Positions 4,079 through 63,725 of a stretch of DNA of 64,000 nucleotides are shown piece after piece. The position numbers were made by a program, and so were the translations under genes. Numbering within the stretch: the first letter of the stretch is position 1; every line of letters begins with the position of its first letter. Origin of the DNA: a virus; IMG/VR virus record IMGVR_UViG_3300014838_000014, positions 1 to 64,000 of that record; one strand, given 5' to 3'. The notes under the pieces are model-generated. The model was not told the origin of the DNA. It ran no database searches and saw only the letters and a program-made list of their open reading frames with translations.

Positions 4079-4107
4079 TGTTTAAACGCGCCAAGTAGTA
4101 CTAAAAC

Positions 4108-4374: not shown

Positions 4375-4376
4375 GA

Positions 4377-7300
4377 GTGATGTCTGATCCAGGTAACCCA
4401 TTGAATGCAGGATCTATCGGGTTTCCGATCGACGGTCAAATGTACACGTTCGACGTAGGTCTGCCAGACTCAGAAGGAGGATCACATGGCACATATGTGC
4501 CAGGCGTTGACGTCAGCGCAGGTTATGTGGATGCTAATGGTAAGCCGAAGGACGTCACGGCGCCGACAAGGACGACGTTAGCTCAATATATGAGCAAGGT
4601 TACGATGGGTAAGGAGGGATCAACGACGGTTCCTAATCAGTACGTAGTTGATCCCATTGGTCCATCGATCGTGACCATAAGCGATTCTAAGGGTTATCCG
4701 GGAGGATTAGAGAACCCTCCAATAAACATGAACACGTTCGCCGGTAAGAACGAGAGAACGATCGATTATAGGTCGCCTGTTTATCCGACGACATTAGCTA
4801 ACTCGATGAAGAAGGGTAAGTCGTCCATAAATTTACCTGATGGAAACGATGTCCTTGCAGGAGTTTCTGGGACGACGACGTACGTTGGTTCACCTGGAAA
4901 CCTATCGGGCGATGCAACAAACGATTCAACGCCATTGATCGGTCACGTTGACACATCGCAGACGATCGTCAATCCTTACGTTTCTGCCATTTTATCAAGC
5001 AACAGGTTTTCAGCCGCCGCGACAAACGTTCAGCAGTTCCCGTACGCCTCGATCGATATTTCTAATCCATCGCCATCGTTCAATCCATCGTTCACCAACC
5101 AAAACAAGCTCGGGTTGTACGATAAGAATGCAGGCCCACCGATCACTGCAGGTCGCTTAGCCGCTATTGGCCCCTTGTTGACTATGCGTGCAGGTCTCGA
5201 GCTCGGCTCGAATGATCCTGGTGCAGATCCAAACGACGGTGGGTTGCAAGCGAAGGCACTTTTGCCGGGTCTCGCACAATTGGGTACATCGACGGTTGAC
5301 GTTACGACGTTGTATGCTAGCGATGTTCTAAAATCATTGACGCAGGATGAACCATCTGGCAACGATGTGCTTAGCATCGGAGCACAATCATGGGGACAAC
5401 TTAACAACACGGATGATCCTTTCTCGGGCACTGATGCGTTGGGAATGCTTGCGTTGTCGACGGCATTGGTTGCCGGCATGATGGTTCTGTTTGATTCGTT
5501 GAGCGTCATTCTCGGAATGATAACTCCGACGATCAAATCGCCGTCGTTCGACGGTGAGGGAAGGTATACGCTTGGTGAACACTACCCTGGAATGGCATCA
5601 GCACAGAAATCGTCTCAACAAGGTGGAATAGGCGGCGTGGTTGCGTCCGTCAGCACGTTGAACTTCGGTGCGTTGCTTGGGATCGTTCCCACGAATTATC
5701 CGTTCAACCAAGCGCTTACGACGGGAATCAATGCGTTCTTTAGCATTCCTGGAGGCGGTGGAATCGGTTTGAATCAATTGGCGGGTGCGTTGACATCGTC
5801 GACTGACTCTCCTGGGTTTAACACCGTCGTCGCACGAGCGATCATCAGGAGCGGCGTTACGATCGTTGATAAGCTCAAGGGAATCGGTGGAAATCCGATG
5901 AACGTGATAAATTCCATCCTATCATTGATAGACACGATTAGATCATCGAAGATCGTAGCTGCGTGCAACGTGTTCGCAATGCTCGGCGATGCGCAGTTAT
6001 CGTTGCCTGGTGGTTACATCGATTCGACCGTTTCAAACACCGTGAAGGTGTCATCGATGGACGCAACCCCAGATACGTTGTCGAACGCAGCGAGCAAGAA
6101 CAGGTTACAATCCAGTCTTAAATTAGCGTGGTCATCGAATAGATCACGAGCGAACCTGTTGATTCCATCGCAGATACTTGCGTTGAACAGCGTGGTCACC
6201 ATGGATCAGTTCAATCCGACGGGTGCATCGAGTCCTGAATCGTTGGTGAACAACACCGTTACGCTACCGGAGAATTCTGGTCGAATAGATCCTGATACGG
6301 CGGCGCAGTTTGAAGCAACGCTTGAAGCTGAGTACGTTCCGTTTTACTTCCATGACATTAGAACGAATGAGATGGTTGGTTTCCATGCGTTCCTTGCATC
6401 GTTGACAGATGATTTCACGGCGTCGTACGAGAAGACAGAGGGATACGGTCGCGTTGAACCTGTGAAGATCTACAAGGGTACAGAACGTCGAATCAACATG
6501 TCGTTCTATATCATCTCAACGTCGCAGCAGGACTTTGATGAGATGTGGATAAAGATCAACAAGCTCGTCACGCTTATCTATCCGCAGTACACGAAGGGCG
6601 TAACGTTGCTGTCACAGGATCAATCGTATTCGTTTACACAACCGTTTAGTCAATTGATTGGAGCATCACCGTTGATCAGGATTCGCTTGGGTGATCTTAT
6701 TCGAGGAAACTACTCACAGTTTGCTCTTGCGCGGTTGTTCGGTCTCGGCAACAGCGATTTTCAACTCGACAACGTGCAGTTCACTGATGGATCATCGTAC
6801 GATCAGAGTCAACTTGATCTGTTGAACCAAGCCATTCAGGACGATTTGTTCAATCCACAGGGAAACACATACTACGTTGCTCCAGGAAACTACCCGTTGT
6901 ACCAAGATAACAGCATTCCGTTTTTGGGATCGTTCGGTGGTGCCACTGGACCTGCAAACGCTCCTACGTTCGATCCAAGCGTGTGTTCCATACCGAACAT
7001 GTTCATAGCAAAGATCAAAAAGGTTTCTGCGAATAGCAATGGTAACGCGATCATTGAGGTTTGTGAGATTGACATAAACGATGATCCTGTGTTCACGTCT
7101 GCGTTCTCAAGTGCTATATCAAGTGCTCAAGCGCAGTTCGAGAACGGTGATCCACTGCAAACGATCGTCGGCGGTACGTACTCGATACCGTTGGATGCTT
7201 TGATTCCTACGCCTCAGACGAAGCGTAAGTTGATGCAACAGGTTGCTCCTGGAAGTTCAGGAACGAGCTTTGCATCCACGTTGACGAACTTCATAGATCC

Positions 7301-7589
7301 TAGCAATAACGCGATTGCAAAGTCGTTCAAGGACACGTATGGTAAGGGTCTAGCGGGTTTCATTGAGACGATGAACTTTGATTGGTACGATAAGGTCACG
7401 TGGGAAACGTCTGTTCAAGGTAGGATAGCACCGAAGATGTGCAAGGTCACGTTAGGATTCAGTCCGATACACGACATCAGTCCTGGTATCGATCACATGG
7501 GTTACAACCGCGCTCCCGTGTATGGCGTCGGCGTTATGGGTTCGCCGAATGCATCATTCCCGACAAACATCCAACCGAGTAACAACTGA
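4377..7589 (+). CDS. virion structural protein, tail tube/baseplate-associated (putative)
   Basis: 1070 aa, G/S/T/N-rich; 'FHAFLASLTDDF..GYGRVEPVKIY..TERRINMSF' segment resembles myophage tube-initiator/baseplate proteins. Confidence 0.55.
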   Translation: MMSDPGNPLNAGSIGFPIDGQMYTFDVGLPDSEGGSHGTYVPGVDVSAGYVDANGKPKDVTAPTRTTLAQYMSKVTMGKEGSTTVPNQYVVDPIGPSIVTISDSKGYPGGLENPPINMNTFAGKNERTIDYRSPVYPTTLANSMKKGKSSINLPDGNDVLAGVSGTTTYVGSPGNLSGDATNDSTPLIGHVDTSQTIVNPYVSAILSSNRFSAAATNVQQFPYASIDISNPSPSFNPSFTNQNKLGLYDKNAGPPITAGRLAAIGPLLTMRAGLELGSNDPGADPNDGGLQAKALLPGLAQLGTSTVDVTTLYASDVLKSLTQDEPSGNDVLSIGAQSWGQLNNTDDPFSGTDALGMLALSTALVAGMMVLFDSLSVILGMITPTIKSPSFDGEGRYTLGEHYPGMASAQKSSQQGGIGGVVASVSTLNFGALLGIVPTNYPFNQALTTGINAFFSIPGGGGIGLNQLAGALTSSTDSPGFNTVVARAIIRSGVTIVDKLKGIGGNPMNVINSILSLIDTIRSSKIVAACNVFAMLGDAQLSLPGGYIDSTVSNTVKVSSMDATPDTLSNAASKNRLQSSLKLAWSSNRSRANLLIPSQILALNSVVTMDQFNPTGASSPESLVNNTVTLPENSGRIDPDTAAQFEATLEAEYVPFYFHDIRTNEMVGFHAFLASLTDDFTASYEKTEGYGRVEPVKIYKGTERRINMSFYIISTSQQDFDEMWIKINKLVTLIYPQYTKGVTLLSQDQSYSFTQPFSQLIGASPLIRIRLGDLIRGNYSQFALARLFGLGNSDFQLDNVQFTDGSSYDQSQLDLLNQAIQDDLFNPQGNTYYVAPGNYPLYQDNSIPFLGSFGGATGPANAPTFDPSVCSIPNMFIAKIKKVSANSNGNAIIEVCEIDINDDPVFTSAFSSAISSAQAQFENGDPLQTIVGGTYSIPLDALIPTPQTKRKLMQQVAPGSSGTSFASTLTNFIDPSNNAIAKSFKDTYGKGLAGFIETMNFDWYDKVTWETSVQGRIAPKMCKVTLGFSPIHDISPGIDHMGYNRAPVYGVGVMGSPNASFPTNIQPSNN

Positions 7590-7882
7590 TGTCGTTCTCT
7601 CGTTACTCGCGTACACCCGTTCTTAACTTCGGTGCACAATACGGCACGTGCAGAGCGCGTGAGGCCATACAGAAAGCGATCGCTGCGGGCACGTTGCTGA
7701 CAAAACCATTGGTGCTTCGCGGTGCCGAGAGGTTGGACACGATGGCCGGTGTGATCTATGGTGATGCACAATATTGGTGGGTCCTCGCCGCGGCGTCGAA
7801 CATCGGATGGGGATTGCAGTGCCCGCCTGGGACTTTGCTTCAGGTTCCTTCACTTGCAGACGTAGCATCGTTGATAGGTTAA
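7589..7882 (+). CDS. LysM-like baseplate/tail X-type protein
   Basis: 'ERLDTMAGVIYGDAQYWWVLAAASNI...PPGTLLQVP' pattern. Confidence 0.7.
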   Translation: MSFSRYSRTPVLNFGAQYGTCRAREAIQKAIAAGTLLTKPLVLRGAERLDTMAGVIYGDAQYWWVLAAASNIGWGLQCPPGTLLQVPSLADVASLIG

Positions 7883-7885
7883 ACG

Positions 7886-10798
7886 ATGGCAAACGACTTT
7901 AGCACGCTCACCGGGATCTACGATATGATGCAGCCGGCGGATCTCGCCGGCACGCAGGGATTGAGCTTGGGTGGTGATCCTAAGATCGGTTCGAATGCGT
8001 TCAACCAACTGCTTAGCGTTCTTGAGAACAATGGACGTGGAGTGTACACGGCGTCAGATCTCAAGGAGAAGTTGAGCAACCTAACATTGAAATCAAGCGA
8101 TGGAAACATCGATCTATCGGAATTCATACAGTTCTTTAGCACACAGGGTATTCTTGATCTTGGAAAGTTATCAGATGCTGCAAAGACGTACAAGGATGCA
8201 AAAGGCAATGCGGTACAGGTGTCAGGAATTCAGGAGATCATCGGTAAGGATTTTCAGCTGAACGGTGACGCGCAACAGAAGCTACCGTTCGATACGACGA
8301 TCATCCTGAGCAGGTCACCGTTCTTTCACCCCGCCACTCGCAACACGAAGAAGGCGGAGACGTTTTTAAACTCGATGCCGTCAACCATCCTCGCATCGTT
8401 GTCGCCGTACCTTCAGGTCGAGTTCCAGGTCAAGCGTGATCCATCGCATCAGCTACAAGCGCCTGGTTTGCTTAAATTTCTCTTGGGCGCAGTTGATAAG
8501 AACGGTCAGGACGCAACGTCCATGGCAAACAAAGCGATGATTGAAGGACATGAGATCAAAGGTAATTCTAACACGCCTGAGATCGATTTTGCCGGCATGG
8601 AGATGTTCACTAGCCCACAGACGTTGGTCAATCCACAACCCAACCTCAACGTTGGTACTGATGGAAATCGCTACGTTGATGTGATTGATCCGTTCAGACC
8701 ATTCGCTTCGTTGGAGCACTGCACGATAACAGCGGTTCCAGCAGTTGGAATGTACTCGTACAAGACGGCATCGCTTGTCATCAAACTACACGATCGTTCG
8801 AGGTTGAACGAGATCAGTGATCTTATCAGGCCACGCGTCTACACGGGAGTCACCGTGTGGATGACGTACGGTTGGCGTGCGCCAGTTCGCCCCGGTGAGA
8901 ATCCTTACTTTGACTACGTCAACAACACGATGTTGATGCGTGAGGCATATGGTATCATCAACAGCAACTTCACGTTTGATAACGTCGGTCAGGTGACAAT
9001 AACGTTGCAGCTCTTCACGAAGGGCGTCATCGAAATGCGTGAATCGAAGATCAGCGATAACATCAATGACATTGATTTCCAATTTAAACAGATAAAGATC
9101 ATTGCTGATCAGATTTCTGAGTATAGAAAGAAGTTAAAACTTGATCCTCCCGATGGAATAAGCAAGGAAATACGAAGGTTTTTGATACTTGACGCGGCCG
9201 AACAGGGTGAATTTCCCAACCTCAAGGTTCAGGATGTGACGACCGCGATAAACCAACTACGTGCAACGCTTGGAAACACAAAGGGAATCGATAAGGACGC
9301 TCTCAATGGTATGATCACATCGTTGCAGCAACTGTATGCGCCAGCGACGAACGATAAGACGAAGTTTAGTCTTAAGGATCGTTACGAGTCTCGAGTCACC
9401 TCAACGATCAACGCGATGTTCGATGAAGCGATAACGGGTACAGATCCTTTCCTGCCTATTTCACTCAAGAACGGTGGTTACAAGCCCTTGGTTGGTGACG
9501 AGATCGCTACGATATGTGATAGTTACAACTCTTCACCAAAGACGCCACCGGTGAATGGATTGGCACGTAAGGCCCTAGTTTCCTTTGGTAAGCTTTTCAT
9601 GGTGTTCGTCGTGAGGAACTTGATCAGCGCAAACGTTACCGATGAACTGCAGGTGTTCTTTTACAATCTCAATGAATCATGCGGTCCCGTGAGCGGTCAT
9701 TCCATCGCTGAGTTTCCGATTGATATGCTAATGTTCAAGGATCAGTATAGACAACACGTGCAGAAGATCGGTAGCGAAAGGATAACGTTGGAGGACTTTC
9801 TTCTGCTCATCATAAATGCACAGTTTCAGGATAATAGGTCTGTCGGTTATGGAATGTCTGCGTTCTACGAGGCGTATGATCCAAAGAATCCAGATGCAAA
9901 GCTCAAGGATCACGAGGGTGAGGAGAACTCGCAGCTTGGCAAGTACCTTAATAAGTGGGGAACGTTCAAGAAACCCGTCATAGAGATGTACATCGAGACG
10001 ACACACCAGCGCGTTCCTGATACGGGTTACACGGACATCCTGACGATGATGGATTATTCTGCGGTAAATTCGGCAACGTTGAACTCCGCTGACCTTCACA
10101 ACCTTGCGTCTAAGAAGATCATGAGGATCCACGTTTACGACAAACAGATGAGTCCTCGCAAGGCCGCGACGCAGTTGCTACGTGCTGATGATAAGGCCGG
10201 AGGATTCATATCGATACCTGCGACGGATTTTGCGATTCAAAAAACGACAGACAAGACGTTGGCTTCGATTCCAACGTCGATCGCGACCGTTCAGAGCGAC
10301 CTTGCGACTGGTCATATACAGATCGTTGACTTCACGAGTAACCAACAGATGAAGGATTTCGTGTCCAAGATGGTACCGACGATAAGGTTTGGATCGAACG
10401 GATCAACGATAACGAACGCGCAGCTCGCTTCGAAGGCTGATGCTTTGTTATCGACGGTGCAGATGATCAGGACGATGACAATGAAGAACTCAGCTCATGC
10501 GAACGGAAGCGGCGAGGGCGGTGTTCCACTGCGCGTCATTCCGGCGCAGTTGACGCTGACGACGTTGGGAAACGTGCTCGCCACGATGGCGCAACAATAC
10601 ATGGTAGATTTTCAGACAGGCACAACGCTTGATAACCTTTATATAGTCGTTGGCACGACTCACACGTTTGCGCCTGGAAAATTCGAGACCACGTGGCAGA
10701 TGGGTTATTCTGATGCATATGGTGTTTTTGAGGGACCACCAAACGTGCAAAAATGGATTTCTCAATTCCCTGCCACTGTGACAGGTGCTACTGGTTGA
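7886..10798 (+). CDS. baseplate hub-like structural protein (putative)
   Basis: 970 aa directly after the LysM-like gene; C-terminal 'LYIVVGTTHTFAPGKFETT' resembles the hub/gpD-type end motif. Confidence 0.5.
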   Translation: MANDFSTLTGIYDMMQPADLAGTQGLSLGGDPKIGSNAFNQLLSVLENNGRGVYTASDLKEKLSNLTLKSSDGNIDLSEFIQFFSTQGILDLGKLSDAAKTYKDAKGNAVQVSGIQEIIGKDFQLNGDAQQKLPFDTTIILSRSPFFHPATRNTKKAETFLNSMPSTILASLSPYLQVEFQVKRDPSHQLQAPGLLKFLLGAVDKNGQDATSMANKAMIEGHEIKGNSNTPEIDFAGMEMFTSPQTLVNPQPNLNVGTDGNRYVDVIDPFRPFASLEHCTITAVPAVGMYSYKTASLVIKLHDRSRLNEISDLIRPRVYTGVTVWMTYGWRAPVRPGENPYFDYVNNTMLMREAYGIINSNFTFDNVGQVTITLQLFTKGVIEMRESKISDNINDIDFQFKQIKIIADQISEYRKKLKLDPPDGISKEIRRFLILDAAEQGEFPNLKVQDVTTAINQLRATLGNTKGIDKDALNGMITSLQQLYAPATNDKTKFSLKDRYESRVTSTINAMFDEAITGTDPFLPISLKNGGYKPLVGDEIATICDSYNSSPKTPPVNGLARKALVSFGKLFMVFVVRNLISANVTDELQVFFYNLNESCGPVSGHSIAEFPIDMLMFKDQYRQHVQKIGSERITLEDFLLLIINAQFQDNRSVGYGMSAFYEAYDPKNPDAKLKDHEGEENSQLGKYLNKWGTFKKPVIEMYIETTHQRVPDTGYTDILTMMDYSAVNSATLNSADLHNLASKKIMRIHVYDKQMSPRKAATQLLRADDKAGGFISIPATDFAIQKTTDKTLASIPTSIATVQSDLATGHIQIVDFTSNQQMKDFVSKMVPTIRFGSNGSTITNAQLASKADALLSTVQMIRTMTMKNSAHANGSGEGGVPLRVIPAQLTLTTLGNVLATMAQQYMVDFQTGTTLDNLYIVVGTTHTFAPGKFETTWQMGYSDAYGVFEGPPNVQKWISQFPATVTGATG

Positions 10799-10891: not shown

Positions 10892-11176
10892 ATGGTACGA
10901 ACGTTGAATGATCAATGCCAGCTCAATCCTGGTGATTTGATCGAATGGGTGTATAAATCTGATTCTCAACCCGTCGATGAGGATGCCAAACTTTGGTCAA
11001 CGACGATGAAGCGTTGGGTTCCAATCGGCGTTCATCCCATGATGCTCATTTCGATGACAGACGAATTCTACATGTGGTTGACCCCGAAGGGGTTGTTCCA
11101 CGCGTGTGTGGATGATACGTCGGCATGCCCGTCGGCGGTCAGTTTCCTCGAGGTTGTTCCACGCGTGTGTGGATGA
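10892..11176 (+). CDS. array-fused small protein family (PGDLIEW family), copy A1
   Basis: paralogous core; reads through repeat 1 and spacer 1 and stops at TGA inside repeat 2; ATG 6 nt after a -10-like TACGAT. Confidence 0.75.
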   Translation: MVRTLNDQCQLNPGDLIEWVYKSDSQPVDEDAKLWSTTMKRWVPIGVHPMMLISMTDEFYMWLTPKGLFHACVDDTSACPSAVSFLEVVPRVCG

Positions 11177-11241
11177 TACACTTAGGCCCTTCCTATGTCT
11201 ACCACCGAGGCTGGTTGTTCCACGCGTTGTAGGAGAACCTC
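11091..11241 (+). CRISPR. mini-array A1: 3 repeats, 2 spacers of 33 nt
   Basis: GGTTGTTCCACGCGTGTGTGGATGATAC at 11091 and 11152 (identical); 3'-degenerate copy at 11213; period 61/61. Confidence 0.75.
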
Positions 11242-11242
11242 G

Positions 11243-11452
11243 ATGAAACCAGGTGATTTGATCGAGTGGGTGTATAAATCTGATTCTCAACCTGTCGATG
11301 AGGATGCCGAACTCTGGTCGACACCGATGCAACGTTGGGTTCCAATCGGCGTTCGACCTGCCATCCTCGTTTCGATCACCGACGAATTCTATTCTTGGTT
11401 GACCCCCGGGGGTTGTTCAGCGCGCGTGTGGATAACACGAAGATCATATTGA
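11243..11452 (+). pseudogene. PGDLIEW family copy A2 (frameshifted before repeat 1)
   Basis: 1-nt deletion just before the repeat (reads GCSAR rather than GLFHAR); degenerate repeats at 11411, 11472 and ~11527. Confidence 0.6.
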
Positions 11453-11556
11453 GCGCGAGAGGCTATACGGAGGTTATGTTCGCGCGCTGATGACATGATA
11501 GTCCACTGGAGTAGCGACCAATTCGGAGTTGTTTCACGTGCCATCGGAGAACATCG

Positions 11557-11808
11557 ATGAAACCTGGTGATTTGATCGAATGGGTGTATAAATCTGATTC
11601 TCAACCCGTCGAAGAGGATGTCAAACTCTGGTCGACACCGATGAAGCGTTGGGTTCCAATCGGTGTTCAACCAATGATGCTCATTTCGATCACCGACGAG
11701 TTTTATTCTTGGTTGACCGCGGAGGAGTTGTTCCACGCGCGCGTGGATGACGCGTGCGAAGGTCGTATCCCGGTCAGGCAACATTCTCGGTTGTTCCACG
11801 CGTTGTAG
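11557..11808 (+). CDS. PGDLIEW family copy A3
   Basis: paralogous core; repeats at 11726 and 11789 (period 63). Confidence 0.7.
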   Translation: MKPGDLIEWVYKSDSQPVEEDVKLWSTPMKRWVPIGVQPMMLISITDEFYSWLTAEELFHARVDDACEGRIPVRQHSRLFHAL

Positions 11809-11818
11809 GAGAATCTAG

Positions 11819-12073
11819 ATGAAACCAGGTGATCTCATCGAGTGGGTGTATCAATATAATTCTCAACCCGTTCTTGAGAATCAAGAACTCTGGTCAACGC
11901 CGATGCAACGTTATATTCCAATCGGTGTTCAACCTGCCGTTCTCATTTCAATCACCGACGAGTTCTATTCTTGGTTGACCCCGAATTGGTTATTCCACGC
12001 GCGCGTGGATGACGTGTTTGCGCCCGTCACGCGCGAACGCTTTCGGCGGGTTATTCCACGCGCGCGTGGATGA
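11819..12073 (+). CDS. PGDLIEW family copy A4
   Basis: paralogous core; ends VIPRARG* within repeat 2. Confidence 0.75.
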   Translation: MKPGDLIEWVYQYNSQPVLENQELWSTPMQRYIPIGVQPAVLISITDEFYSWLTPNWLFHARVDDVFAPVTRERFRRVIPRARG

Positions 12074-12128
12074 CGCGGTGTCGCGCTCTCTGGTCGCACG
12101 GCGAGACTGGGTTATTCCACGCGTTGTA
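11988..12128 (+). CRISPR. mini-array A4: 3 repeats, 2 spacers
   Basis: GGTTATTCCACGCGCGCGTGGATGACG at 11988 and 12049, truncated copy at 12110; period 61/61; both spacers ~70% GC. Confidence 0.75.
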
Positions 12129-12159
12129 ATCCTTTGATTTGTTTGTTACTATCTTTTTC

Positions 12160-29560: not shown

Positions 29561-29821
29561 ATGACAAACGATAGAATAAGGTTCGTCAATCCTGACGTTG
29601 AAATAGAAGTTCGTGGCTCTGAGATGCTGTTCGTTGCTTGGTGTTTAACACATGATTTTTACGATAGTGATATTGATCCGTTGCACCGTACTTCTTACGT
29701 TGAAGAACACCAAAAAAATGAAGAATTAAGCCTCATATTTTTGAAGAAACGTATCGAGGAGGCGTTGAAGCGACGCACCGATGAAGAACAAACGCCGTAT
29801 ACCATGAAAACGCATGGTTAG
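29561..29821 (+). CDS. hypothetical protein
   Basis: ATG 6 nt after a TATGAT -10-like element. Confidence 0.5.
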   Translation: MTNDRIRFVNPDVEIEVRGSEMLFVAWCLTHDFYDSDIDPLHRTSYVEEHQKNEELSLIFLKKRIEEALKRRTDEEQTPYTMKTHG

Positions 29822-30098
29822 AGATTTTTGTGAGCTGCATCCTGGTGACCTCATCAAGTGGGTGTATGAATCTGATTCTCAACCCGTTCGTGAGAATGAT
29901 GAACTCTGGTCAATGCCGATGCAACGTTATATTCCAATCGGCGTTCAACCCATGATGCTCATTTCAATCACCGACGAGTTTTATTCTTGGTTGACACCGA
30001 AGGGTTGTTCCACGCGCGCGTGGATGACGCGTGTGGTTTGCTCGCCGAAGGCTTCACTCGGGCGGGTTGTTCCACGCATTATTGGAGAACATAGATGA
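29814..30098 (+). CDS. PGDLIEW family copy B1
   Basis: paralogous core; repeats at 30003 and 30065; a -1 indel before repeat 1 is offset by a 34-nt spacer, so it still ends VVPRIIGEHR. Confidence 0.7.
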   Translation: MVRDFCELHPGDLIKWVYESDSQPVRENDELWSMPMQRYIPIGVQPMMLISITDEFYSWLTPKGCSTRAWMTRVVCSPKASLGRVVPRIIGEHR

Positions 30099-30349
30099 AA
30101 CCAGGTGACCTCATTGAGTGGGTATACAAATCTAATTATAAATCAGTTCGTGAGAATGATGAATTCTGGTCAACGCCGATGCAACGCTGGGTTCCTATTG
30201 GCGTTCAACCCATGATGCTCATTTCAATCACCGACGAGTTCTACATGTGGTTGACCCCAACGGGGTTGTTCCGCGCGCGTGTGGATGACGCACAGTTCGG
30301 CCCGACGCGGACCACGAGCTTGCCGGTTGTTCCGCGCTCATATGGATGA
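30095..30349 (+). CDS. PGDLIEW family copy B2
   Basis: paralogous core; ends VVPRSYG* in repeat 2. Confidence 0.75.
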   Translation: MKPGDLIEWVYKSNYKSVRENDEFWSTPMQRWVPIGVQPMMLISITDEFYMWLTPTGLFRARVDDAQFGPTRTTSLPVVPRSYG

Positions 30350-30409
30350 CACGTGGTTCACAAGGTTGGACAGACGATGGGTTGTTCTGCGCGTCGTCGA
30401 AGAACATTG
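30264..30409 (+). CRISPR. mini-array B2: 3 degenerate repeats, 2 spacers
   Basis: repeats at 30264, 30325 and 30380 (periods 61, 55). Confidence 0.6.
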
Positions 30410-30430
30410 CTGAAGCTAACATCCAACACG

Positions 30431-30470
30431 TTAGTGCCAGGAGATCTGATTGAGTGGCAATATGAACGGT
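30431..30470 (+). pseudogene. remnant of a PGDLIEW family copy
   Basis: TTAGTGCCAGGAGATCTGATTGAGTGGCAATATGAA = LVPGDLIEWQYE, then degenerates. Confidence 0.5.
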
Positions 30471-30684
30471 ACACGAGTTTGTGGTTCTGAAGAAGTGTGG
30501 TCACATAAACGTTGAGTTACGTATGCGCTGATGGATATTTTATTGTAGTTTCAATCATCAAAATTTCTATGATATTGTGTCTTGTTTATTATGATGCGAA
30601 GGAATGTGTGTAAACGCGTGTTGTAACGAGCTTGTAACACGTTGTTAACACCACGAGTGTGCTATGAATGGTACTTGTTGATGC

Positions 30685-31506: not shown

Positions 31507-31947
31507 ATGATGAAGTTTTACTCAGCCAATGTCATTGCATCAGCGTGTGTAATTTTAGGAACGTGTGGATTCGTTCATTGTGAACGAATCGCGATGGCTG
31601 GTGATGAACAGCGACTAACGACATCGTTCAACGTTGAGGTCGACAAGATTGATAATGGAAAAGTTACAAAGCTGTATGATCAGATGCCACCGACGCGTGC
31701 TGGGACGTGTTTACCGATGTCCACGATCACGGCGAACTGGTGCTGCGTTGCTTCGACCGCTGACCTCATCGGCGCTGATTATGTAAACGCTGCTCTCACG
31801 TGCGTCAATACGAACGATGTTTCTAACGGTTCATTTGTTATTGGAACGACTTGCAACATCAGGAAGCCAAATAAAACATCTAACTACGTCGTGATAGGTC
31901 CGATGGGTAAATCAATCATTGTGTATCTCTCGTGCGAGACGAAGTGA
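31507..31947 (+). CDS. secreted/membrane hypothetical protein, Cys-rich
   Basis: signal-peptide-like N-terminus. Confidence 0.5.
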   Translation: MMKFYSANVIASACVILGTCGFVHCERIAMAGDEQRLTTSFNVEVDKIDNGKVTKLYDQMPPTRAGTCLPMSTITANWCCVASTADLIGADYVNAALTCVNTNDVSNGSFVIGTTCNIRKPNKTSNYVVIGPMGKSIIVYLSCETK

Positions 31948-31951
31948 TTCG

Positions 31952-32206
31952 ATGAAACCCGGTGACCTCATTGAGTGGGTGTACAAACGTAATTCTCAAC
32001 CCGTTCGTGAGAATGAGCAACTCTGGTCAACACCGATGAATCGTTGGATTCCAATCGGTGTTCATCCCATGATGCTCATTTCAATCACCGACGAGTTCTA
32101 TTCTTGGTTGACCCCGGAGTGGTTGTTCCACGCGCGCGTGGATGACATGGCGACCAACAATCGTCGGGAGCGAGAGCTGCGGGTTGTTCCACGCGCGCGT
32201 GGATGA
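31952..32206 (+). CDS. PGDLIEW family copy C1
   Basis: paralogous core; ends VVPRARG* in repeat 2. Confidence 0.78.
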   Translation: MKPGDLIEWVYKRNSQPVRENEQLWSTPMNRWIPIGVHPMMLISITDEFYSWLTPEWLFHARVDDMATNNRRERELRVVPRARG

Positions 32207-32334
32207 CATGATGATCGGCTCGCGCATAGCTCACGGGAATGAGGTTGTTCCACACGCGCGTGGATGACGTGGATTGCCTGTCGTCATTTCGCCGGACAAC
32301 AACAAATTGTTCCGCGCGAGTGCGTGGATGACGT
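32121..32334 (+). CRISPR. mini-array C: 4 repeats, 3 spacers
   Basis: GGTTGTTCCACGCGCGCGTGGATGACAT at 32121 and 32182 (identical), variant at 32243, degenerate at 32305; periods 61/61/62. Confidence 0.8.
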
Positions 32335-35817: not shown

Positions 35818-36087
35818 TTGTTTCCAGGTGATTTGATCGAATGGGTGTATGAAGATGATTTTCAACCTATTCGTGATGATGATTACCTTTTTTCAACGCC
35901 GATGAATCGATTCATCGGCGTTGGAAGTGATTATGGTCCTTATATTCTAATTTCAGTCACGCGTGAATTTTATTCATGGCTGACACCATGTGGATTGTTT
36001 CTTGCGCGTTTGGACGATGCAGTTCTGTACACAGAACAATGGACTGAAAAAAAAGTCCTGCCACGTGCCATCGAGAAATTTCAATGA
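35818..36087 (+). CDS. PGDLIEW family copy D1 (divergent)
   Basis: PGDLIEWVY core; eroded repeats at 35993 and 36054 keep the 61-nt spacing. Confidence 0.65.
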   Translation: MFPGDLIEWVYEDDFQPIRDDDYLFSTPMNRFIGVGSDYGPYILISVTREFYSWLTPCGLFLARLDDAVLYTEQWTEKKVLPRAIEKFQ

Positions 36088-36347
36088 AACCCGGTGACCT
36101 CATCGAGTGGGTGTATAAATCTGATCCTCAACCCGTCGATGAGGATGTCGAACTCTGGTCAACGCCGATGCAACGTTGGATTCCCATCGGTATTCACCCC
36201 GCCGTCCTCATCTCGATCACCGATGAGTTCTACACGTGGTTGACGCTTGAGGGGTTGTTCCACGCGCGCGTGGATGACACGAGGATCTGGCCACGCAGGA
36301 CTCTGTCTCCCTTGGTTGTTCCACGCGTCGTTGGAGAACATCTATGA
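36084..36347 (+). CDS. PGDLIEW family copy D2
   Basis: paralogous core; ends VVPRVVGEHL. Confidence 0.78.
   Translation: MKPGDLIEWVYKSDPQPVDEDVELWSTPMQRWIPIGIHPAVLISITDEFYTWLTLEGLFHARVDDTRIWPRRTLSPLVVPRVVGEHL
36253..36343 (+). CRISPR. repeat-spacer-repeat unit D2
   Basis: consensus repeat GGTTGTTCCACGCGCGCGTGGATGACAC at 36253, 33-nt spacer, trailer-type repeat at 36314. Confidence 0.65.
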
Positions 36348-36613
36348 AACCCGGTGATCTCATCGAACGGGTGTATGAAGTTAATCCTCAACCCGTTAAA
36401 GAGAATGAGAAGCTTTGGTCGACACCGATGAGTTGCTGGGTTCCAATTGGTATTCAACCGGCCGTCCTCATCTCGATCACCGATGAGTTCTATGTGTGGC
36501 TGAACACAAAGGGTCTATTCAACGCACGCATAAAAGACACTGCTTTCAGATCGTTGGATAGGATGCCATGGGGAGGTTGTTCAATGCGTGCGTTAATGAT
36601 GAGTTTAACATAG
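36344..36613 (+). CDS. PGDLIEW family copy D3
   Basis: paralogous core; degenerate repeats at 36513 and 36575. Confidence 0.65.
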   Translation: MKPGDLIERVYEVNPQPVKENEKLWSTPMSCWVPIGIQPAVLISITDEFYVWLNTKGLFNARIKDTAFRSLDRMPWGGCSMRALMMSLT

Positions 36614-38262: not shown

Positions 38263-38722
38263 CAAAGCGGCCGAGGTCGGTGGCATCTTTTCGTTGCTTG
38301 TCTTCGTTCACTTCATCGCTGATTGGGTTTTTCAATCGCACGACTCAGCAATCAGAAAATCAAAGGATACATGCGTTCGAGCGGTACATTGTTGTGTTTA
38401 CGTGGCGTTCTTCATCGTTCCAATTGGTTACTATTACTACGTTCGATCAACGTTACCATTGTATTACTCAAGAACGTTGTTGTTGTCATTGGTGACGCTG
38501 TTATGGGTGAGTCACTTCATCATCGACTCGTATGTTATAACGTTGCTTTGGGCTAAGCACATCAGGAAGTCCATTGCGTTCAATGCTGGCATCACAGATG
38601 AACAAGCGTTTGCTTATATGTTTAGCACGCCTGTTGGTGCAATACTCAACATCACGATCGATCAGTTACAACACGTTGCCGTTCTAATCGTTGTCGCGGT
38701 TGCGTTGGTGTTCTTTCAATGA
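38255..38722 (+). CDS. DUF3307-like membrane protein
   Basis: 'HFIADWVFQS', 'SHFIID', 'DQLQH'. Confidence 0.7.
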   Translation: MIDKAAEVGGIFSLLVFVHFIADWVFQSHDSAIRKSKDTCVRAVHCCVYVAFFIVPIGYYYYVRSTLPLYYSRTLLLSLVTLLWVSHFIIDSYVITLLWAKHIRKSIAFNAGITDEQAFAYMFSTPVGAILNITIDQLQHVAVLIVVAVALVFFQ

Positions 38723-38982
38723 AACCCGGTGACCTCATTGAATGGGTGTATAAATCTGATTCTCAATCAGTTAATAAGCATGAGGAACTTTGGTCGACAC
38801 CGCTGCGTCGCTGGGTTCCAATTGGTATTCAACCTGCGATCCTCGTTTCGATCACCGATGAGTTTTATTCTTGGTTGACAACAAGAGGGTTATTCCATGC
38901 ACATGTTCTCGACGTCGATGCAAGTCCACGCTTCGGTCGCGGGCCAGCTGTCGTTCCACGCGTTATCGGAGAACATCGATGA
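38719..38982 (+). CDS. PGDLIEW family copy E1
   Basis: paralogous core; repeats at 38888 and 38949. Confidence 0.75.
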   Translation: MKPGDLIEWVYKSDSQSVNKHEELWSTPLRRWVPIGIQPAILVSITDEFYSWLTTRGLFHAHVLDVDASPRFGRGPAVVPRVIGEHR

Positions 38983-39233
38983 AACCAGGTGATTTGATCG
39001 AGTGGGTGTATCAATATAATTCTCAACCCGTTGATGAGAATGCCCAACTTTGGTCAACGTCGATGCAACGTTATATTCCAATTGGTGTTCAACCCGCCGT
39101 TCTCATTTCAATCACCGACGAGTTCTACATGTGGTTGACCCAGAAGGGGTTGCTCCACGTGCATGTGGATGACGCGAAGGCTCCAATGAGATATCGAATT
39201 ACCTCGTTGGTTGTTCCACGCGTTGTAGGATAA
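38979..39233 (+). CDS. PGDLIEW family copy E2
   Basis: paralogous core; repeats at 39148 and 39209. Confidence 0.75.
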   Translation: MKPGDLIEWVYQYNSQPVDENAQLWSTSMQRYIPIGVQPAVLISITDEFYMWLTQKGLLHVHVDDAKAPMRYRITSLVVPRVVG

Positions 39234-39238
39234 CATTG

Positions 39239-39493
39239 ATGAAACCAGGTGATTTGATTGAATGGGTGTATTCTAATTCTCAACCCGTTCTCGAAGATGA
39301 GAAGCTTTGGTCGACGCCGATGAATCGCTGGGTTCAAATCGGTGTTCACCCAATGATGCTCATTTCGATGACAGACGAATTATACGTGTGGTTGACACCT
39401 GATGGGTTGTTCAACGCACGTGTGGCTGACACCGGTGGCGTCATAGCTGGCGAGTATGGTGTTTTTCCACGCGTCGTCGGAGAACATCGATGA
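39239..39493 (+). CDS. PGDLIEW family copy E3
   Basis: paralogous core; repeats at 39405 and 39460 (period 55). Confidence 0.75.
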   Translation: MKPGDLIEWVYSNSQPVLEDEKLWSTPMNRWVQIGVHPMMLISMTDELYVWLTPDGLFNARVADTGGVIAGEYGVFPRVVGEHR

Positions 39494-39756
39494 AACCCGG
39501 TGACCTCATTGAATGTGTATATAAATCTGATTCTCAACCCGTTAATGAAGATGAGAAACTCTGGTCAACGCCGATGCAACGTTGGATTCCAATCGGTGTT
39601 CACCCTATGATGTTTATTTCGATGACAGACGAATTCTACACGTGGCTGACACCTGAGGGGTTGTTTCATGCGTGCGTGGATGATACAAGGAGTATGCGAA
39701 GGAAATACTGGGAGCACGTGGTTGTTAAACGAATGCATTGTTTTGTGCATCATTGA
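39490..39756 (+). CDS. PGDLIEW family copy E4
   Basis: paralogous core; repeats at 39659 and 39720. Confidence 0.72.
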   Translation: MKPGDLIECVYKSDSQPVNEDEKLWSTPMQRWIPIGVHPMMFISMTDEFYTWLTPEGLFHACVDDTRSMRRKYWEHVVVKRMHCFVHH

Positions 39757-48840: not shown

Positions 48841-51090
48841 ATGAACAGTAGATTACCTCAAAAATTCGTTGGAATACACTCTCACACGGGATTCAGTCCA
48901 TTTGATGGGCTCGGGTACCCTGACGAACATTTTACATGGTGTATGGAAAATGGATTAGATGCACATGCAATAACAGACCACGGAAATTGTAACGCCTATG
49001 CTCACGCACAGCTGTGGATCGAGAAGTGGAATGCAGAGCACAAGGATAAACCTTTCAAGTACATTCCTGGCGTTGAGAGCTACTTTCACCCAGATTTGAC
49101 GGCGTGGGAACAAGATAAATCGATCGCCGATCAGGCTCGTATCGATAAGAAGGTTGCAAAGAAGGTTGCTTCCTCACAGGAGGAGTACCAAACGAAGCTC
49201 ATCGTCAACACAGATCAGAACGACGAGACAGAAAGCATCGAGATGACGAACGCTCTCGTCGTTGAGGACGAGGATGAGAGCAAGTCGACGAAGCACTTCA
49301 ATCCCGTCAACCGTCGTCATCACCTTGTCCTGTTACCGAAGAACACCGCAGGTCTGTTGAAGATCTTTGGTCTCGTGTCGTGGTCGTACCTCCATGGGTT
49401 CTACAGGTTTCCAAGGATAGATGCCAAGCTACTTCGTGAGGCTGCAAAGGATCGCAACATCATCGCATCGTCTGCGTGCATTGCGGGACAACCTGCGTTC
49501 AATGTGTTTCAAGAAATACAGAAGCTATCGTTCGACGAGCTTGATCAGAAGCTTCTCGACGATCCTTCGCTTCTCGAGCGGTGCGTTACGTCTATTGGCA
49601 ACACGTATGACCTGATGACAGACGTTCTTGGAGACGGTAACTACTACCTTGAGCTTCAGTTCAACAAGCTCGCCGCTCAGAACCTCGTGAACAGAGCGAT
49701 CCTCGAGTTCGCAAAGCGTAACGGCGTCGAACAACAGCTCGTGGTGACGTGCGATTCACACTATCCTCGGCCTGAACTGTGGAAGGAACGTGAGCTCTAC
49801 AAGAAGCTCGGATGGATGAACTACAAGGAGATCGATTCTGCTTCGCTACCGAACTCCGTCGATGAACTCAAGTGTCAATTGTACCCGAAGAACGCGAAGC
49901 AGCTTTGGGATGAATACCTTCTATCCAAGGAGGGAACCAGTTTCTACGATGACGACGTGATCTGCGATGCCATCGAACGTACACACGACATCGCTCACCA
50001 CGTGATCGGTGAGGTGCCGCCTGATCGTTCGCCGAAGTTCGCCGATAAGTTGCTTGTTCCAGAGGACATCACGGCGTTCAATCACCTCGTGAAGCTGTGC
50101 ATGGATGGAATGGTCAAACGCGGTCTACGTGACGATCAATCGTACGTTGACAGGTTGAAGGAGGAACTCGGCGTCATCAAGACGATGAAGAACGCCGTGT
50201 ACTTCATATCGTACCAAAAAATAATGGAACTCGCTAGGAGCGTTTGTTTATGCGGTCCTGGTAGAGGTTCAGGAGGTGGATCTCTCGTTGCTTACGTCCT
50301 GTACATCACAGACCTCGATCCATTAAGGTGGGATTTGCCGTTCTCGCGGTTCCTGAGCGTGTACAGGAAGGGTGCACCTGACATAGACACCGACCTATCA
50401 AATCGCGACAAGGTTCTCGATCAATTAAGGGCATTCTTCGGGTTTGAGAACGTGGTTCCCATCTCGAACTACAACACGTTTAAGTTAAAGACCCTTGTCA
50501 AGGACATCGGAAAGTTCTACGGCGTGCCTTTCGAGGAGACGAATGCGGCAACGAGGACGGTTGAGGAGGAGGTGCGCAAGGCGACGATGAAGGACTCGGA
50601 TGATAAAAATCTTTTTGTCTTGCAGTTTGATGATGCGATGAAATATTCTCCATCGTTTAAATCTTTTATTGAAAGGTATCCAAACGTTGCAGAATCAATT
50701 AAGATATTGTTCAAACAGAACAGATCGCTTGGTCGCCACGCCGGGGGTGTATTGATTGCTGACGACTTGCCGAACAAAATGCCGCTTGTGGCAAGTCACG
50801 GCGAACCACAATCTCCATTTGTTGAAGGCGTAAACTTCAAACATTTGGAATACATTGGCAACTTTATTAAATACGATTTGTTGGGCCTTGAAACGCTTCG
50901 TTTGATTGAAAGAACGATTGAATTAATAATCGAAAAAAATGGAGGAATTATTGAATTAGAAATTGATGGTGTCAAACATAGGTTGCTGGCTTCAGCGTAC
51001 GTTAAGTTGGTTGATGGTTCATTTGTGAAAGCTGGTCTCTTAAAGGTTGATGATGATGTTATCATTCCAATGGAGACGAGAAATGACTAA
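48841..51090 (+). CDS. dnaE: DNA polymerase III alpha subunit, N-terminal fragment
   Basis: PHP 'HSHTGFSPFDG', 'AITDHG'; 'GPGRGSGGGSL', 'PDIDTD', 'GRHAGG', 'KYDLLGL'. Confidence 0.9.
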   Translation: MNSRLPQKFVGIHSHTGFSPFDGLGYPDEHFTWCMENGLDAHAITDHGNCNAYAHAQLWIEKWNAEHKDKPFKYIPGVESYFHPDLTAWEQDKSIADQARIDKKVAKKVASSQEEYQTKLIVNTDQNDETESIEMTNALVVEDEDESKSTKHFNPVNRRHHLVLLPKNTAGLLKIFGLVSWSYLHGFYRFPRIDAKLLREAAKDRNIIASSACIAGQPAFNVFQEIQKLSFDELDQKLLDDPSLLERCVTSIGNTYDLMTDVLGDGNYYLELQFNKLAAQNLVNRAILEFAKRNGVEQQLVVTCDSHYPRPELWKERELYKKLGWMNYKEIDSASLPNSVDELKCQLYPKNAKQLWDEYLLSKEGTSFYDDDVICDAIERTHDIAHHVIGEVPPDRSPKFADKLLVPEDITAFNHLVKLCMDGMVKRGLRDDQSYVDRLKEELGVIKTMKNAVYFISYQKIMELARSVCLCGPGRGSGGGSLVAYVLYITDLDPLRWDLPFSRFLSVYRKGAPDIDTDLSNRDKVLDQLRAFFGFENVVPISNYNTFKLKTLVKDIGKFYGVPFEETNAATRTVEEEVRKATMKDSDDKNLFVLQFDDAMKYSPSFKSFIERYPNVAESIKILFKQNRSLGRHAGGVLIADDLPNKMPLVASHGEPQSPFVEGVNFKHLEYIGNFIKYDLLGLETLRLIERTIELIIEKNGGIIELEIDGVKHRLLASAYVKLVDGSFVKAGLLKVDDDVIIPMETRND

Positions 51091-52234
51091 GTTTTACGTT
51101 TACGTTGATTCAACAACTGAAGAAACACCAAGACCTTTTTACGTTGGAAAGGGCACCAAAGACAGGATTGATAATGAACAGCGAAACAAACGTCATGTAT
51201 TTGTTTCAAATAAACACGGCTTTTCAAGAAGCGTTGTTTTCACGACTGAAAATGAAATTGAGGCGCTTTCACACGAAGTGAAGTTGATTGCAGAACTTCA
51301 CACCTACGTCAAGGATCCATTATCATCGTCGATTTCAGCAAATTTTACGTATGGTGGCGAAGGCGTTATTGGTATAAATGAACGTTGGGTTGAACAGTAC
51401 AAAGACGGCGTTTTAGTCAAAAAATTTGCTAACTTTCATGAAGTTGCCGAACACTTTGGATTTACTAAGTCTGGCGTTGTTAGCAATGCATTCTCTGGTA
51501 GGTGCGTTTTTCCAGTCGTGATGCGAGAATTTACGTGGAACGTTGAACCATCGAGAAAACGTAAGTTGTCATCGACACATGGAAATTCAATGATTATTCT
51601 CGAATTAAATCCGCAAACAAATGAAGTAATAAAAGAATATGCGTCAATCACAGAAGTTGTAAAATCAAAGAAAATAATGTACTCATACTTGATGAACGCA
51701 ATTCGTTCGACCAATCCAAAAGCAATGGAGAAGTTGATCGCTAAAACGGGTAGCAAGTGGGCATTCAAGGATGAAAAACACAACGTAGGAAAAATTCATA
51801 ATTCGAACGTTCAATCACCATCAGGTCCTAAACCCGTGGTCGTTGTTTATTCAACTGGTATAAAACGTATATATCCTTCAACTGTCAGGGCAGCACAAGC
51901 GTTGGGCATTAATCCAAATGAGTTGCTAGCGATTCTTCACGGTGATAACATTCAACGATCTGATTTTACGTGTTCATTTCTGCACGAAAGCGATCATCGT
52001 AAGGACGTTGTTAGGTCGAAGGAATGGATCAATGCGCTTGCTGGCATAAATGGAATTCAAATCGTGAAATTGGATAAGTCTGGAAACGTCATAGAAAAAT
52101 TCAACTCAATTTCAGAGGCTGAACGTCGCGAAGGGTTTATGCATCATGAAATTTATAAACAATTGAGAATTGATAGCGTTTTGCATGCCAATGGGTTCAC
52201 CTACAAACGTGTTGAGGAGCAATCGAATGTCTAA
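51083..52234 (+). CDS. GIY-YIG homing endonuclease with NUMOD1-like repeats, inserted in dnaE
   Basis: 'FYVY...PFYVGKG', 'N.TYGGEG', repeated 'KEYASITE'/'EKFNSISEAER'; AT-rich. Confidence 0.75.
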   Translation: MTKFYVYVDSTTEETPRPFYVGKGTKDRIDNEQRNKRHVFVSNKHGFSRSVVFTTENEIEALSHEVKLIAELHTYVKDPLSSSISANFTYGGEGVIGINERWVEQYKDGVLVKKFANFHEVAEHFGFTKSGVVSNAFSGRCVFPVVMREFTWNVEPSRKRKLSSTHGNSMIILELNPQTNEVIKEYASITEVVKSKKIMYSYLMNAIRSTNPKAMEKLIAKTGSKWAFKDEKHNVGKIHNSNVQSPSGPKPVVVVYSTGIKRIYPSTVRAAQALGINPNELLAILHGDNIQRSDFTCSFLHESDHRKDVVRSKEWINALAGINGIQIVKLDKSGNVIEKFNSISEAERREGFMHHEIYKQLRIDSVLHANGFTYKRVEEQSNV

Positions 52235-53852
52235 AATAACCTCAATCAATTCCGTCGCCACGTCGTTTGACGACATCAAATCGTGGTACGAAACGCACCT
52301 TGCACCAAACGTCATTGACTTTGATGATCAGAAACCCTACGAAGTCTACTCTGAGGGACGGTTTTGCGGTATATTCCAGTGCACAGGCCAAGGTGCCCAA
52401 CGATTGTTTAAAAAAGCAAAACCCAAGAGCATCGTTGACATTGCAGCGTTGACGTCGATATATCGACCGGGTCCTCTTGCGGCGCACGTCGACAAGCTTT
52501 GGCTTGAACACGAACAATCGCCGTACGATTGGGGTCATCCATTGATAAATGAAACGTTGAAAAATACTCGAGGATTATTGGTGTTTCAAGAATCTGTGAT
52601 GCACCTCGTCAACAAGGTTTCAGGGTTTCCGATGGCTGAGACCGATGAGGTTCGACGTGCCATCATGAAGCGTAGCATTTCTGGTGGTGAAGCTGCCAAA
52701 AAGAAAATGCAGGAACTTGAGGACAAGATTGTTGCCGGCGCAGTCAAGAACGGCGTTCCTGAGCCAACGGCACGTAAGATGTACGAAACGATATGCTTTA
52801 TGTCAGGTTATGGTTTCAATTGTGCGCACGCCGTTGCCTATAGCATCGATTCGTTTTGGTGTGCGTGGCTTTTAACGTATTATCCTGATGAGTGGGTCTG
52901 TTCATATCTCGAGTCCATGTCTACGACGCCCGATAAACGAGCAAAGGCATTCGGTGAGGTGAAGTCGTTGGGTTATCAGATCGTATCGATCGATGTCAAT
53001 TACGCAAAGAAGGGTTGGACAGTTCTTCCCGGCAAGAAGTTGATGCCATCAATGTCATCGTGCAAGGGCGTCGGTGAATCGGCCGTAGATGAGATCATCT
53101 CCATGCGTCCGATTGAATCGATCGAGCGGTTGCTGTGGAACGATGACGGATCATGGCGTCCAAGCAAATTCAATTCCAGAGCGCTCGGTACGTTGATCAA
53201 GGTCGGTGCGTTCGATAGCCTCGGTTGCGTGGGTCCTGATAGAGTGTTCAAGAACTACAAACACATGCATGAAACGCTTCTTGGTTCGTATGAGGAAACC
53301 ATCACACGCAGGCGAAAGGGCATCGAAGAGACGGTCGTCGTCTCTCGTGACCATTCTACTCTGCTCAAGCGATCGACAAAGAAGGATCCACATGAGGGTC
53401 GACGTAACTTCTTTGAGCTTGCCCGTGGTCTCGCTGAAACGTGTACGGAGGAATGGACGAACCGCGAAAAGGCAGAGCTATATGCAGAGGCGTTTGGAAC
53501 GGTTGACGTCATGATGATGTTCGATCAGACGTTGTTCGATAGGCTTGCTGAGAAGAACGTTCGATCTATCGAGGAGCTTGAGGTCGGTGAGAAGGACATC
53601 GTCTGGTTTGTCACCGTTGTTTGTGCGGCGAAGAAAGGCAAGGGCGTACCTTCAGCAGGAACCATGAAGAAGACCAAGAACGGTAAGTCGTACGCTCAAC
53701 CGTTCGTCACCGGTCCGTCAGGAAAACCGCTACGCCTCAACGTATGGAGCGCGAAGGAGCTATTGCCGACGTATAAGCTGTGTTTTGCTGAGGTTGACAG
53801 GAATGACTACGGTTTCTCAACGACACAGTGGCGAATCAAGGAGATCGCATAA
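52227..53852 (+). CDS. dnaE: DNA polymerase III alpha subunit, C-terminal fragment
   Basis: 'GIFQ', 'SIYRPGP', 'LVFQE', 'GYGFNCAHAVAY', 'KGVG'; own GAGGAG SD before ATG 52227. Confidence 0.88.
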   Translation: MSKITSINSVATSFDDIKSWYETHLAPNVIDFDDQKPYEVYSEGRFCGIFQCTGQGAQRLFKKAKPKSIVDIAALTSIYRPGPLAAHVDKLWLEHEQSPYDWGHPLINETLKNTRGLLVFQESVMHLVNKVSGFPMAETDEVRRAIMKRSISGGEAAKKKMQELEDKIVAGAVKNGVPEPTARKMYETICFMSGYGFNCAHAVAYSIDSFWCAWLLTYYPDEWVCSYLESMSTTPDKRAKAFGEVKSLGYQIVSIDVNYAKKGWTVLPGKKLMPSMSSCKGVGESAVDEIISMRPIESIERLLWNDDGSWRPSKFNSRALGTLIKVGAFDSLGCVGPDRVFKNYKHMHETLLGSYEETITRRRKGIEETVVVSRDHSTLLKRSTKKDPHEGRRNFFELARGLAETCTEEWTNREKAELYAEAFGTVDVMMMFDQTLFDRLAEKNVRSIEELEVGEKDIVWFVTVVCAAKKGKGVPSAGTMKKTKNGKSYAQPFVTGPSGKPLRLNVWSAKELLPTYKLCFAEVDRNDYGFSTTQWRIKEIA

Positions 53853-63397: not shown

Positions 63398-63413
63398 GTG
63401 TCGGAGAACATCG

Positions 63414-63671: not shown

Positions 63672-63725
63672 CACGATGTTCGTGTGGCCTGTAAACGAGC
63701 GAGGAACGGTTGTTCCCAGTGTTGT
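63583..63725 (+). CRISPR. mini-array F4: 3 repeats, 2 spacers
   Basis: repeats at 63583, 63647 and 63708 (periods 64, 61). Confidence 0.65.

Follow-up and report, generated by a model that had tools for sequence, protein, structure and literature searches.

Canonical type I-E CRISPR arrays combine a 28-29-nt repeat with a 32-nt spacer, giving a 61-nt period, and are further marked by an 8-nt 5' handle and a PAM-derived G. Virus-borne mini-CRISPR arrays without cas genes have non-coding leaders, repeats identical to those of the host, and spacers directed mostly against related viruses (Medvedeva et al. 2019, PMC6858448; review, PMC11656645). Small non-coding RNAs placed behind promoters are also known from phages, namely Racr solitary repeat units (PMC10651486) and CRISPR-like regulatory RNAs (bioRxiv 10.1101/2024.10.29.618823); some of them are of type I-E and have two or three spacer-like segments (PMC10651486; bioRxiv 10.1101/2024.10.29.618823). 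None of these known elements, whether virus mini-arrays, RNA anti-CRISPRs, or phage CRISPR-like RNAs, is coding (PMC6858448, PMC11656645, PMC10651486, bioRxiv 10.1101/2024.10.29.618823). No description of a translated spacer was found in a literature search, and an overlap of CRISPR memory with coding sequence appears to be undescribed so far.

Organization of the C1 locus

The window, which is the whole 64-kb stretch of DNA that was analysed, belongs to a large soil phage and holds 18 copies of an ~85-aa gene in six clusters (profile search). Copies in the window are designated by cluster letter and number, homologous loci by L numbers. Copy C1 has the following features (window positions).

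31952-32206, + strand: C1 gene, 84 aa, comprising the core, repeat 1, spacer 1, and then repeat 2 up to the stop
31952-32119, + strand: conserved core, 56 codons, predicted to encode a small beta-barrel protein (dN/dS, codon-position variation, and AF2 model)
32121-32149, + strand: repeat 1, 29 nt with a 14-nt perfect palindrome, read as LFHARVDD plus M
32150-32181, + strand: spacer 1, 32 nt, read as the loop ATNNRRERELR; unique and without a match in any collection searched
32182-32210, + strand: repeat 2, exactly as repeat 1; in the +1 frame it gives VVPRARG, with the TGA stop (32204-32206) inside its own GGATGA
32211-32242, + strand: spacer 2, 32 nt, past the stop
32243-32271, + strand: repeat 3, one mismatch
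32272-32304, + strand: spacer 3, 33 nt
32305-32334, + strand: repeat 4, terminal and degenerate, with an insertion

The ATG of C1 lies 4 nt past the stop of the upstream ORF 31507-31947; a segment of that ORF (31715-31762) gives 80-90% matches over 30-45 nt to several unrelated bacterial genomes. A simple scan of the C1 surroundings for promoters and terminators found nothing. Repeat 1, spacer 1, and repeat 2 together specify the last ~28 residues of the protein; past repeat 2 the array goes on with periods of 61 and 62 nt and closes with the degenerate repeat. The 61-nt period leaves a remainder of 1 on division by 3, which is why the repeat reads LFHARVDD in its first copy and VVPRARG-stop in its second. 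The first-pass annotation had made this point, with the TGA supplied by the GGATGA of the second copy, and had described spacer 1 as a translated, variable segment of the gene; the former is confirmed in C1, the latter by the anatomy of C1 together with the frame reading across copies.

Comparison with virus-borne arrays and CRISPR-like RNAs

The cassette is like virus-borne mini-arrays in having one to three spacers, a cas-less vicinity, constant repeat and spacer lengths, and a degenerate last repeat. It differs from them in that a selected gene takes the place of the 'leader', translation extends over the first repeat-spacer-repeat, at least 18 copies of the cassette are present, and neither a host repeat nor a spacer target was found (genomes, relatives, and, for five spacers, IMG/VR).

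With Racr units and CRISPR-like RNAs it shares phage-borne CRISPR repeats with the potential to load host Cas proteins or titrate them, and with Racr also the single repeat that is seen in a few copies (E4, L015, and L016). Unlike Racr, its repeats lie inside a translated frame and mostly come with spacers, and no promoter-like site adjoins C1. An array embedded in an ORF would be missed by the Racr search pipeline, because predicted ORFs are masked first (PMC10651486).

Copies and clusters in the window

All significant repeat copies found by profile search of the window fall inside the six clusters, and the repeat has 13 window matches at up to 3 mismatches, compared with 0 in 100 shuffles. 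Besides C1, the clusters are as follows.

10892-12130, + strand: cluster A, four copies, of which A1 and A4 carry two spacers apiece and A2 has a frameshift
29814-30480, + strand: cluster B, two copies and a remnant
35818-36613, + strand: cluster D, three copies; in D1 the repeats are decayed and the VLPR tail is kept
38719-39756, + strand: cluster E, four copies in tandem; in every unit, the second repeat bears GGAG together with the ATG of the copy that follows
62552-63720, + strand: cluster F, four copies; repeat 2 of F1 has a 2-nt deletion and its stop is lost

Longer arrays with full repeats are those of A1, A4, B2, C1, F1, and F4. In tandem clusters the second repeat of a unit keeps its 5' half; the 3' half is changed and holds GGAG 7 nt before the next ATG, and stop and start of adjacent copies overlap as ATGA. 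The tandem unit measures 260 nt, of which 199 nt reach from the variant repeat to the following repeat 1 and the other 61 nt complete the unit.

Irregular units were seen at two places. The remnant third copy of cluster B (30380-30480) consists of a degenerate variant repeat followed by the fragment PGDLIEWQYER without an ATG. In F1 (62781-62887) the GGATGA stop frame is lost, and the gene, now 111 aa long, continues through a second spacer and the variant repeat after it.

Several frame-related statements of the first-pass annotation on the window copies were recounted and agree with the present data. V-x-P/K-R is found in the shifted frame in 14 of 18 copies (exceptions A2, A3, D3, and F3); off-size first periods of 55, 64, and 64 nt retain the frame; the upstream -1 indel of B1 is compensated, here by a 62-nt period; and spacer 1 is free of stops in window copies with an intact upstream frame.

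Phage context and relatives

The window corresponds to a replication and nucleotide-metabolism module of a large phage, with Pfam matches to ribonucleotide reductase, RecA, DNA polymerase III alpha, DnaB-like helicase, thymidylate synthases, thymidine kinase, dUTPase, polynucleotide kinase, RNA ligase, and DNA methylase. ThyA-type and ThyX-type thymidylate synthase families are both matched within the 64-kb module, as are HNH and NUMOD3 families. DNA polymerase III alpha (48841-53852) appears to be split, with finger and HhH in ORF 52170-53852 and a separate ORF (51047-52234) before it. Three very large ORFs (1236, 1070, and 970 aa; 368-10798) that immediately precede cluster A are without Pfam match. 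No tRNAs were found in a tRNA search, and INPHARED held no relative of the phage.

Homologues of the protein were found only in metagenomic and IMG/VR contigs, including contigs of 361 kb and 82 kb and a viral contig of 46 kb, and on a phage-like contig binned in a Bdellovibrionota MAG. This last copy (L044, G001:C9), with two full repeats and a degenerate third, lies on an 89-kb contig next to unknown ORFs, a sigma-70-like gene, and an AAA ATPase; the contig is probably phage rather than host DNA.

No cas family was present among the 25 listed of 38 matched Pfam families (49 window ORFs), nor in 10 large ORFs scanned singly, and neither the related 46-kb contig nor the Bdellovibrionota MAG yielded Cas1 or CasE. 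A search of 185,579 species genomes with the exact degenerate pattern gave no cellular array with this repeat, and no repeat array was present in 124 Bdellovibrionota at up to 3 mismatches. Thirteen repeat loci from the genome-wide scan were set aside: 12 were single chance matches in GC-rich genes, and the thirteenth was the same cassette in the Bdellovibrionota MAG.

Repeats and array geometry

Geometry was measured on 63 non-redundant units from all lineages. A 61-nt period was found for 25 of 40 first periods and 8 of 12 later ones, and is common to lineages and contigs from AT-rich to GC-rich; 33 of 52 spacers are 32 nt long. Repeats have a palindromic core followed by GGATGAC and 2-3 nt, and the base 3' of the repeat is G in 31 of 52 (60%). 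Of 28 repeat pairs from within arrays, 14 are identical, and the mean is 2.1 mismatches per 26 nt; for arrays that share a contig, a mean of 4.6 differences per 26 positions was counted, and array-specific variants are common to all repeats of the array concerned. Decay in arrays with at least three repeats is greatest in the repeats farthest from the gene, which fits acquisition at the ORF-proximal repeat.

Features of CRISPR arrays that were found are the 28-29-nt palindromic, near-identical repeats, the unique ~32-nt spacers, and the degenerate gene-distal repeat; a non-coding AT-rich leader was not found, the upstream flank being selected coding sequence. The geometry is that of a CRISPR-type array. 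From the 61-nt period, the palindrome, the 8-nt tail, and the G, presumably PAM-derived, we take the repeat to be type I-E-like. The period, the palindromic core with GGATGAC and 2-3 nt, and the frequent G are as in canonical type I-E arrays; unlike in these, no cas operon was seen, an AT-rich leader is absent, no CRISPR family in Rfam matches the repeat, and the stem is shorter and without covariation (85% of cells pair; zero two-sided, i.e., compensatory, changes).

The missing covariation, and the outcome of the searches made for cas genes, a host array, a protospacer, and an Rfam match, none of which was found, would also suit a different origin, in which the repeat would be some phage-specific element for recombination or regulation, with an unconstrained, fast-drifting loop lying between its copies. 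A core dS of ~0.85 points the same way, in that neutral drift alone would erase spacer similarity between paralogues. The sharp 32-nt ruler argues against such an origin, and so do the young arrays C1, A1, A4, L011, L016, and L027, in which identical repeats enclose unrelated spacers, so that tandem duplication followed by drift is excluded. Further evidence against a drifting loop comes from the spacers themselves and is given below.

Selection on the gene and predicted fold

Pairwise dN/dS of the core was 0.27-0.30, about 0.28 (294 pairs; 25 non-redundant gapless copies), and third positions vary at the invariant residues P3, G4, D5, L6, and I7 and in the S-I-T-D-E-F-Y block. The synonymous changes noted in the first reading of the sequence, and the selection on the protein proposed from them, are thus upheld by the dN/dS then called for and by the variable third positions. 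On this substitution pattern, the ORF upstream of the array is a real gene under purifying selection.

An AF2 model built with 42 homologues was all-beta with a mean pLDDT of 86, and is taken as supportive only, because conservation of VVPR in its alignment is partly nucleotide-driven. Strands are predicted at residues 58-62 (LFHAR) and 77-83 (VVPRAR), and the spacer-encoded residues form a lower-confidence segment between them; structure prediction had been proposed earlier as a check for a spacer loop before a VVPR strand. Fold searches returned weak SH3, Tudor, and FeoA-type matches, the best with Z 4.5 (2.3 A rmsd, 55 residues), and Foldseek E-values were >0.5. Pfam, PHROGs, and ESM Atlas contain no family for the protein.

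The lack of a family or function in these three resources, and the fact that the gene occupies the leader position in every array, could be accounted for if the upstream 'gene' were simply a conserved CRISPR leader with an open frame by chance and nothing translated. This is hardly credible given the dN/dS of 0.27-0.30 and the variable third positions at invariant residues, and is further contradicted by GGAG 7 nt before internal ATGs, by the ATGA stop/start overlap, by the confident fold prediction, and by the frame-specific depletion of stops in spacer 1 (p=0.0004).

Protein length is 84-90 aa in most copies, including copies with decayed repeats, and in some of the latter (e.g., D1 and L032) VLPR or VVPR is retained via synonymous changes. 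In about 8 of 48 copies repeat 2 is read in another frame and VVPR is absent, so this strand is not strictly required.

Coding constraint on spacer 1

Among 39 non-redundant first spacers with repeat 1 in frame, 38 are open in the coding frame, compared with 25 and 30 in the other two frames (Fisher p=0.0004); composition-preserving shuffles gave 27.8+-2.7, with a maximum of 37 in 2000. The one first spacer with a stop belongs to a copy that has stops in the core as well. Four copies with frame-shifting periods read through the second spacer, which is also open, and bring the number of fully translated spacers to 42. Spacer 1 is constrained as coding sequence.

A comparison of stop frequency between first and later spacers, as proposed in the first-pass annotation, was carried out: first spacers are almost all open, but the 12 later, untranslated spacers are likewise stop-free in the equivalent frame (12/12), an outcome reached by 1.7% of shuffles. 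In the two remaining frames 11 and 10 of the 12 are open, so openness of later spacers is not frame-specific.

An open, translated, and variable segment invites an interpretation as programmed diversification, in which each acquisition would write a new exposed-loop peptide on a multicopy scaffold and the resulting, changing repertoire of binders would be what is selected. The 38 of 39 open first spacers agree with this, as do the many paralogues per genome with loops that are all different, the AF2 hairpin with its lower-confidence loop, and the frame retention through off-size periods of 55, 64 (four times), and 85 nt, through compensating indels, and in read-through cases. Against it, the frame is kept by 6 of 15 off-size first periods, close to the one third expected, and the loop peptides match shuffled expectation in composition and in hydropathy (-0.54 vs -0.54+-0.11), only stops appearing to be filtered. 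The persistence of intact genes where repeats have decayed also counts against it, and no integrase was found in the window, the 46-kb contig, or the MAG (Pfam matches listed). The loop peptides look like random sequence filtered for stops alone.

Origin and turnover of the spacers

All 52 spacers are unique and without a match among the related loci examined. Spacers of the window have 61% GC vs 47% for the window as a whole. Their period-3 GC signal is 15.55 vs 12.16+-0.91 in shuffled spacers, a value reached by 0 of 2000 shuffles, and the GC-rich phase is distributed 21/12/16 over the three codon positions of the gene. By codon position, GC is flat in spacers (0.62, 0.60, 0.65) and 0.48, 0.38, and 0.53 in the core. 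Since the period-3 signal is unrelated to the gene frame and GC is flat across positions, the composition fits spacers that would be fragments taken in random phase from GC-rich coding DNA and not evolved in place.

No source for the spacers emerged from the collections searched: INPHARED phages gave nothing significant in near or distant modes, PLSDB plasmids gave chance-level matches only, and neither 401 Acidobacteriota and 301 Pseudomonadota genomes nor the Bdellovibrionota MAG carrying a copy held a protospacer. In IMG/VR, the five spacers tested had zero matches and the exact repeat was also absent. Bacterial matches of ~90% to one spacer were rejected as chance, being sited in unrelated genes.

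Loci L023 and L028 are 99% identical in the core, in repeats 1 and 2, and in 80 nt beyond, and have unrelated spacers of 32 and 56 nt, with the frame kept in both. This pair is direct evidence for spacer replacement. The 32-nt ruler, the identical repeats within arrays, the foreign composition, and the full replacement between 99%-identical orthologues together support the view that the variable segment acts as an acquired CRISPR spacer and not as a drifting loop. With the spacer composition being independent of the codon positions of the gene, and a whole spacer exchanged between near-identical flanks, an origin outside CRISPR is very improbable.

Turnover among strains was otherwise low. A second sample of the phage is 99.86% identical over 4.8 kb with zero indels, and 14 strain variants of window copies in the protein database have unchanged loops and 0-2 substitutions. 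Locus L003 is without one exact 61-nt unit that is present in L006 and L008; fresh acquisition was considered and rejected, as the two repeats differ and the pattern fits deletion by recombination. Loss of this unit (L003:7500-7990 vs L006:4927-5480) fuses two gene copies into a 163-aa open frame. A newly added gene-proximal spacer was not seen in any of the orthologous loci compared, where the sole length polymorphism resembles a deletion. The comparison of orthologous loci for polarised spacer addition, which had been put forward earlier, yielded the complete replacement in L023/L028 but no polarised addition. Spacers do turn over, as L023/L028 shows, but slowly relative to strain divergence, since strain variants keep their spacers; in this the cassette differs from a diversity-generating retroelement.

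Cassettes are the most conserved DNA between related phages, with 99% identity vs much more diverged flanks (L023:9900-10420/L028:569-1120; window/L002-L004), and are the sole megablast-level similarity between the window and the 46-kb contig. These alignments suggest exchange or gene conversion of the cassettes.

The slow turnover also bears on programmed diversification. The one orthologue pair with a swapped loop speaks in its favour, but strain variants from other samples hold the same spacers with point changes only, and we consider programmed diversification rather doubtful.

Interpretation

The cassette is probably a cas-less, type I-E-like CRISPR mini-array that overlaps the 3' end of a multicopy phage gene, the variable loop being a by-product. 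In the mechanism we propose, a Cas1-Cas2-type integrase, probably that of the host, would insert spacers at the gene-adjacent repeat; some 30% of insertions would bring an in-frame stop and would be purged by selection, because the protein would need its last strand. The conserved nucleotide repeat may have a CRISPR role at the RNA or DNA level, providing guides or decoys for a type I-E system of the host. The variable loop would then most likely be a tolerated by-product of spacer turnover and not a selected diversification device.

The first-pass annotation had gone further and proposed that spacer acquisition diversifies the protein, each event writing a new peptide and moving the old one beyond the stop. 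The proposal is partly supported: spacer 1 lies in a selected frame, is foreign-like in composition, has been swapped once, and adjoins arrays whose decay is polarised away from the gene. As a description the proposal holds; as a selected function it is left unsupported by random-like loops, by strains that keep their spacers, and by the absence of any new gene-proximal spacer in the loci compared. That a CRISPR integrase serves as a writer of protein sequence, placing random peptides into an exposed hairpin loop on a multicopy small beta-barrel scaffold and so building a heritable, RT-free repertoire of binders, is in our judgement unlikely. There is no sign that the phage deliberately uses the variation.

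The same holds for the proposed RT-free counterpart of diversity-generating retroelements. The likeness is in outcome only: a phage protein with a conserved scaffold varies locally, in a segment close to its C-terminus. Unlike in these elements, there is no template repeat and every variable segment is unique, no adenine-directed pattern is seen and whole segments are replaced, and no reverse transcriptase is present among the 25 listed of 38 matched Pfam families (49 window ORFs). The comparison may serve as an analogy of outcome, not of a demonstrated function.

Conclusions

CRISPR arrays are treated as non-coding, and pipelines that search for viral repeats mask genes beforehand (PMC10651486); an array lying partly in coding sequence would escape them systematically. 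In this cassette one nucleotide repeat, read in two frames, provides two strands of one protein, and a captured spacer becomes part of that protein. Spacer integration can thus edit a protein, and selection visibly removes those spacers that would break it. The cassette also offers a natural case in which to test how far a small fold tolerates random sequence. It adds to the forms in which cas-less CRISPR elements are known from large phages and, if the loop were functional, it would represent a new route to targeted protein variation.
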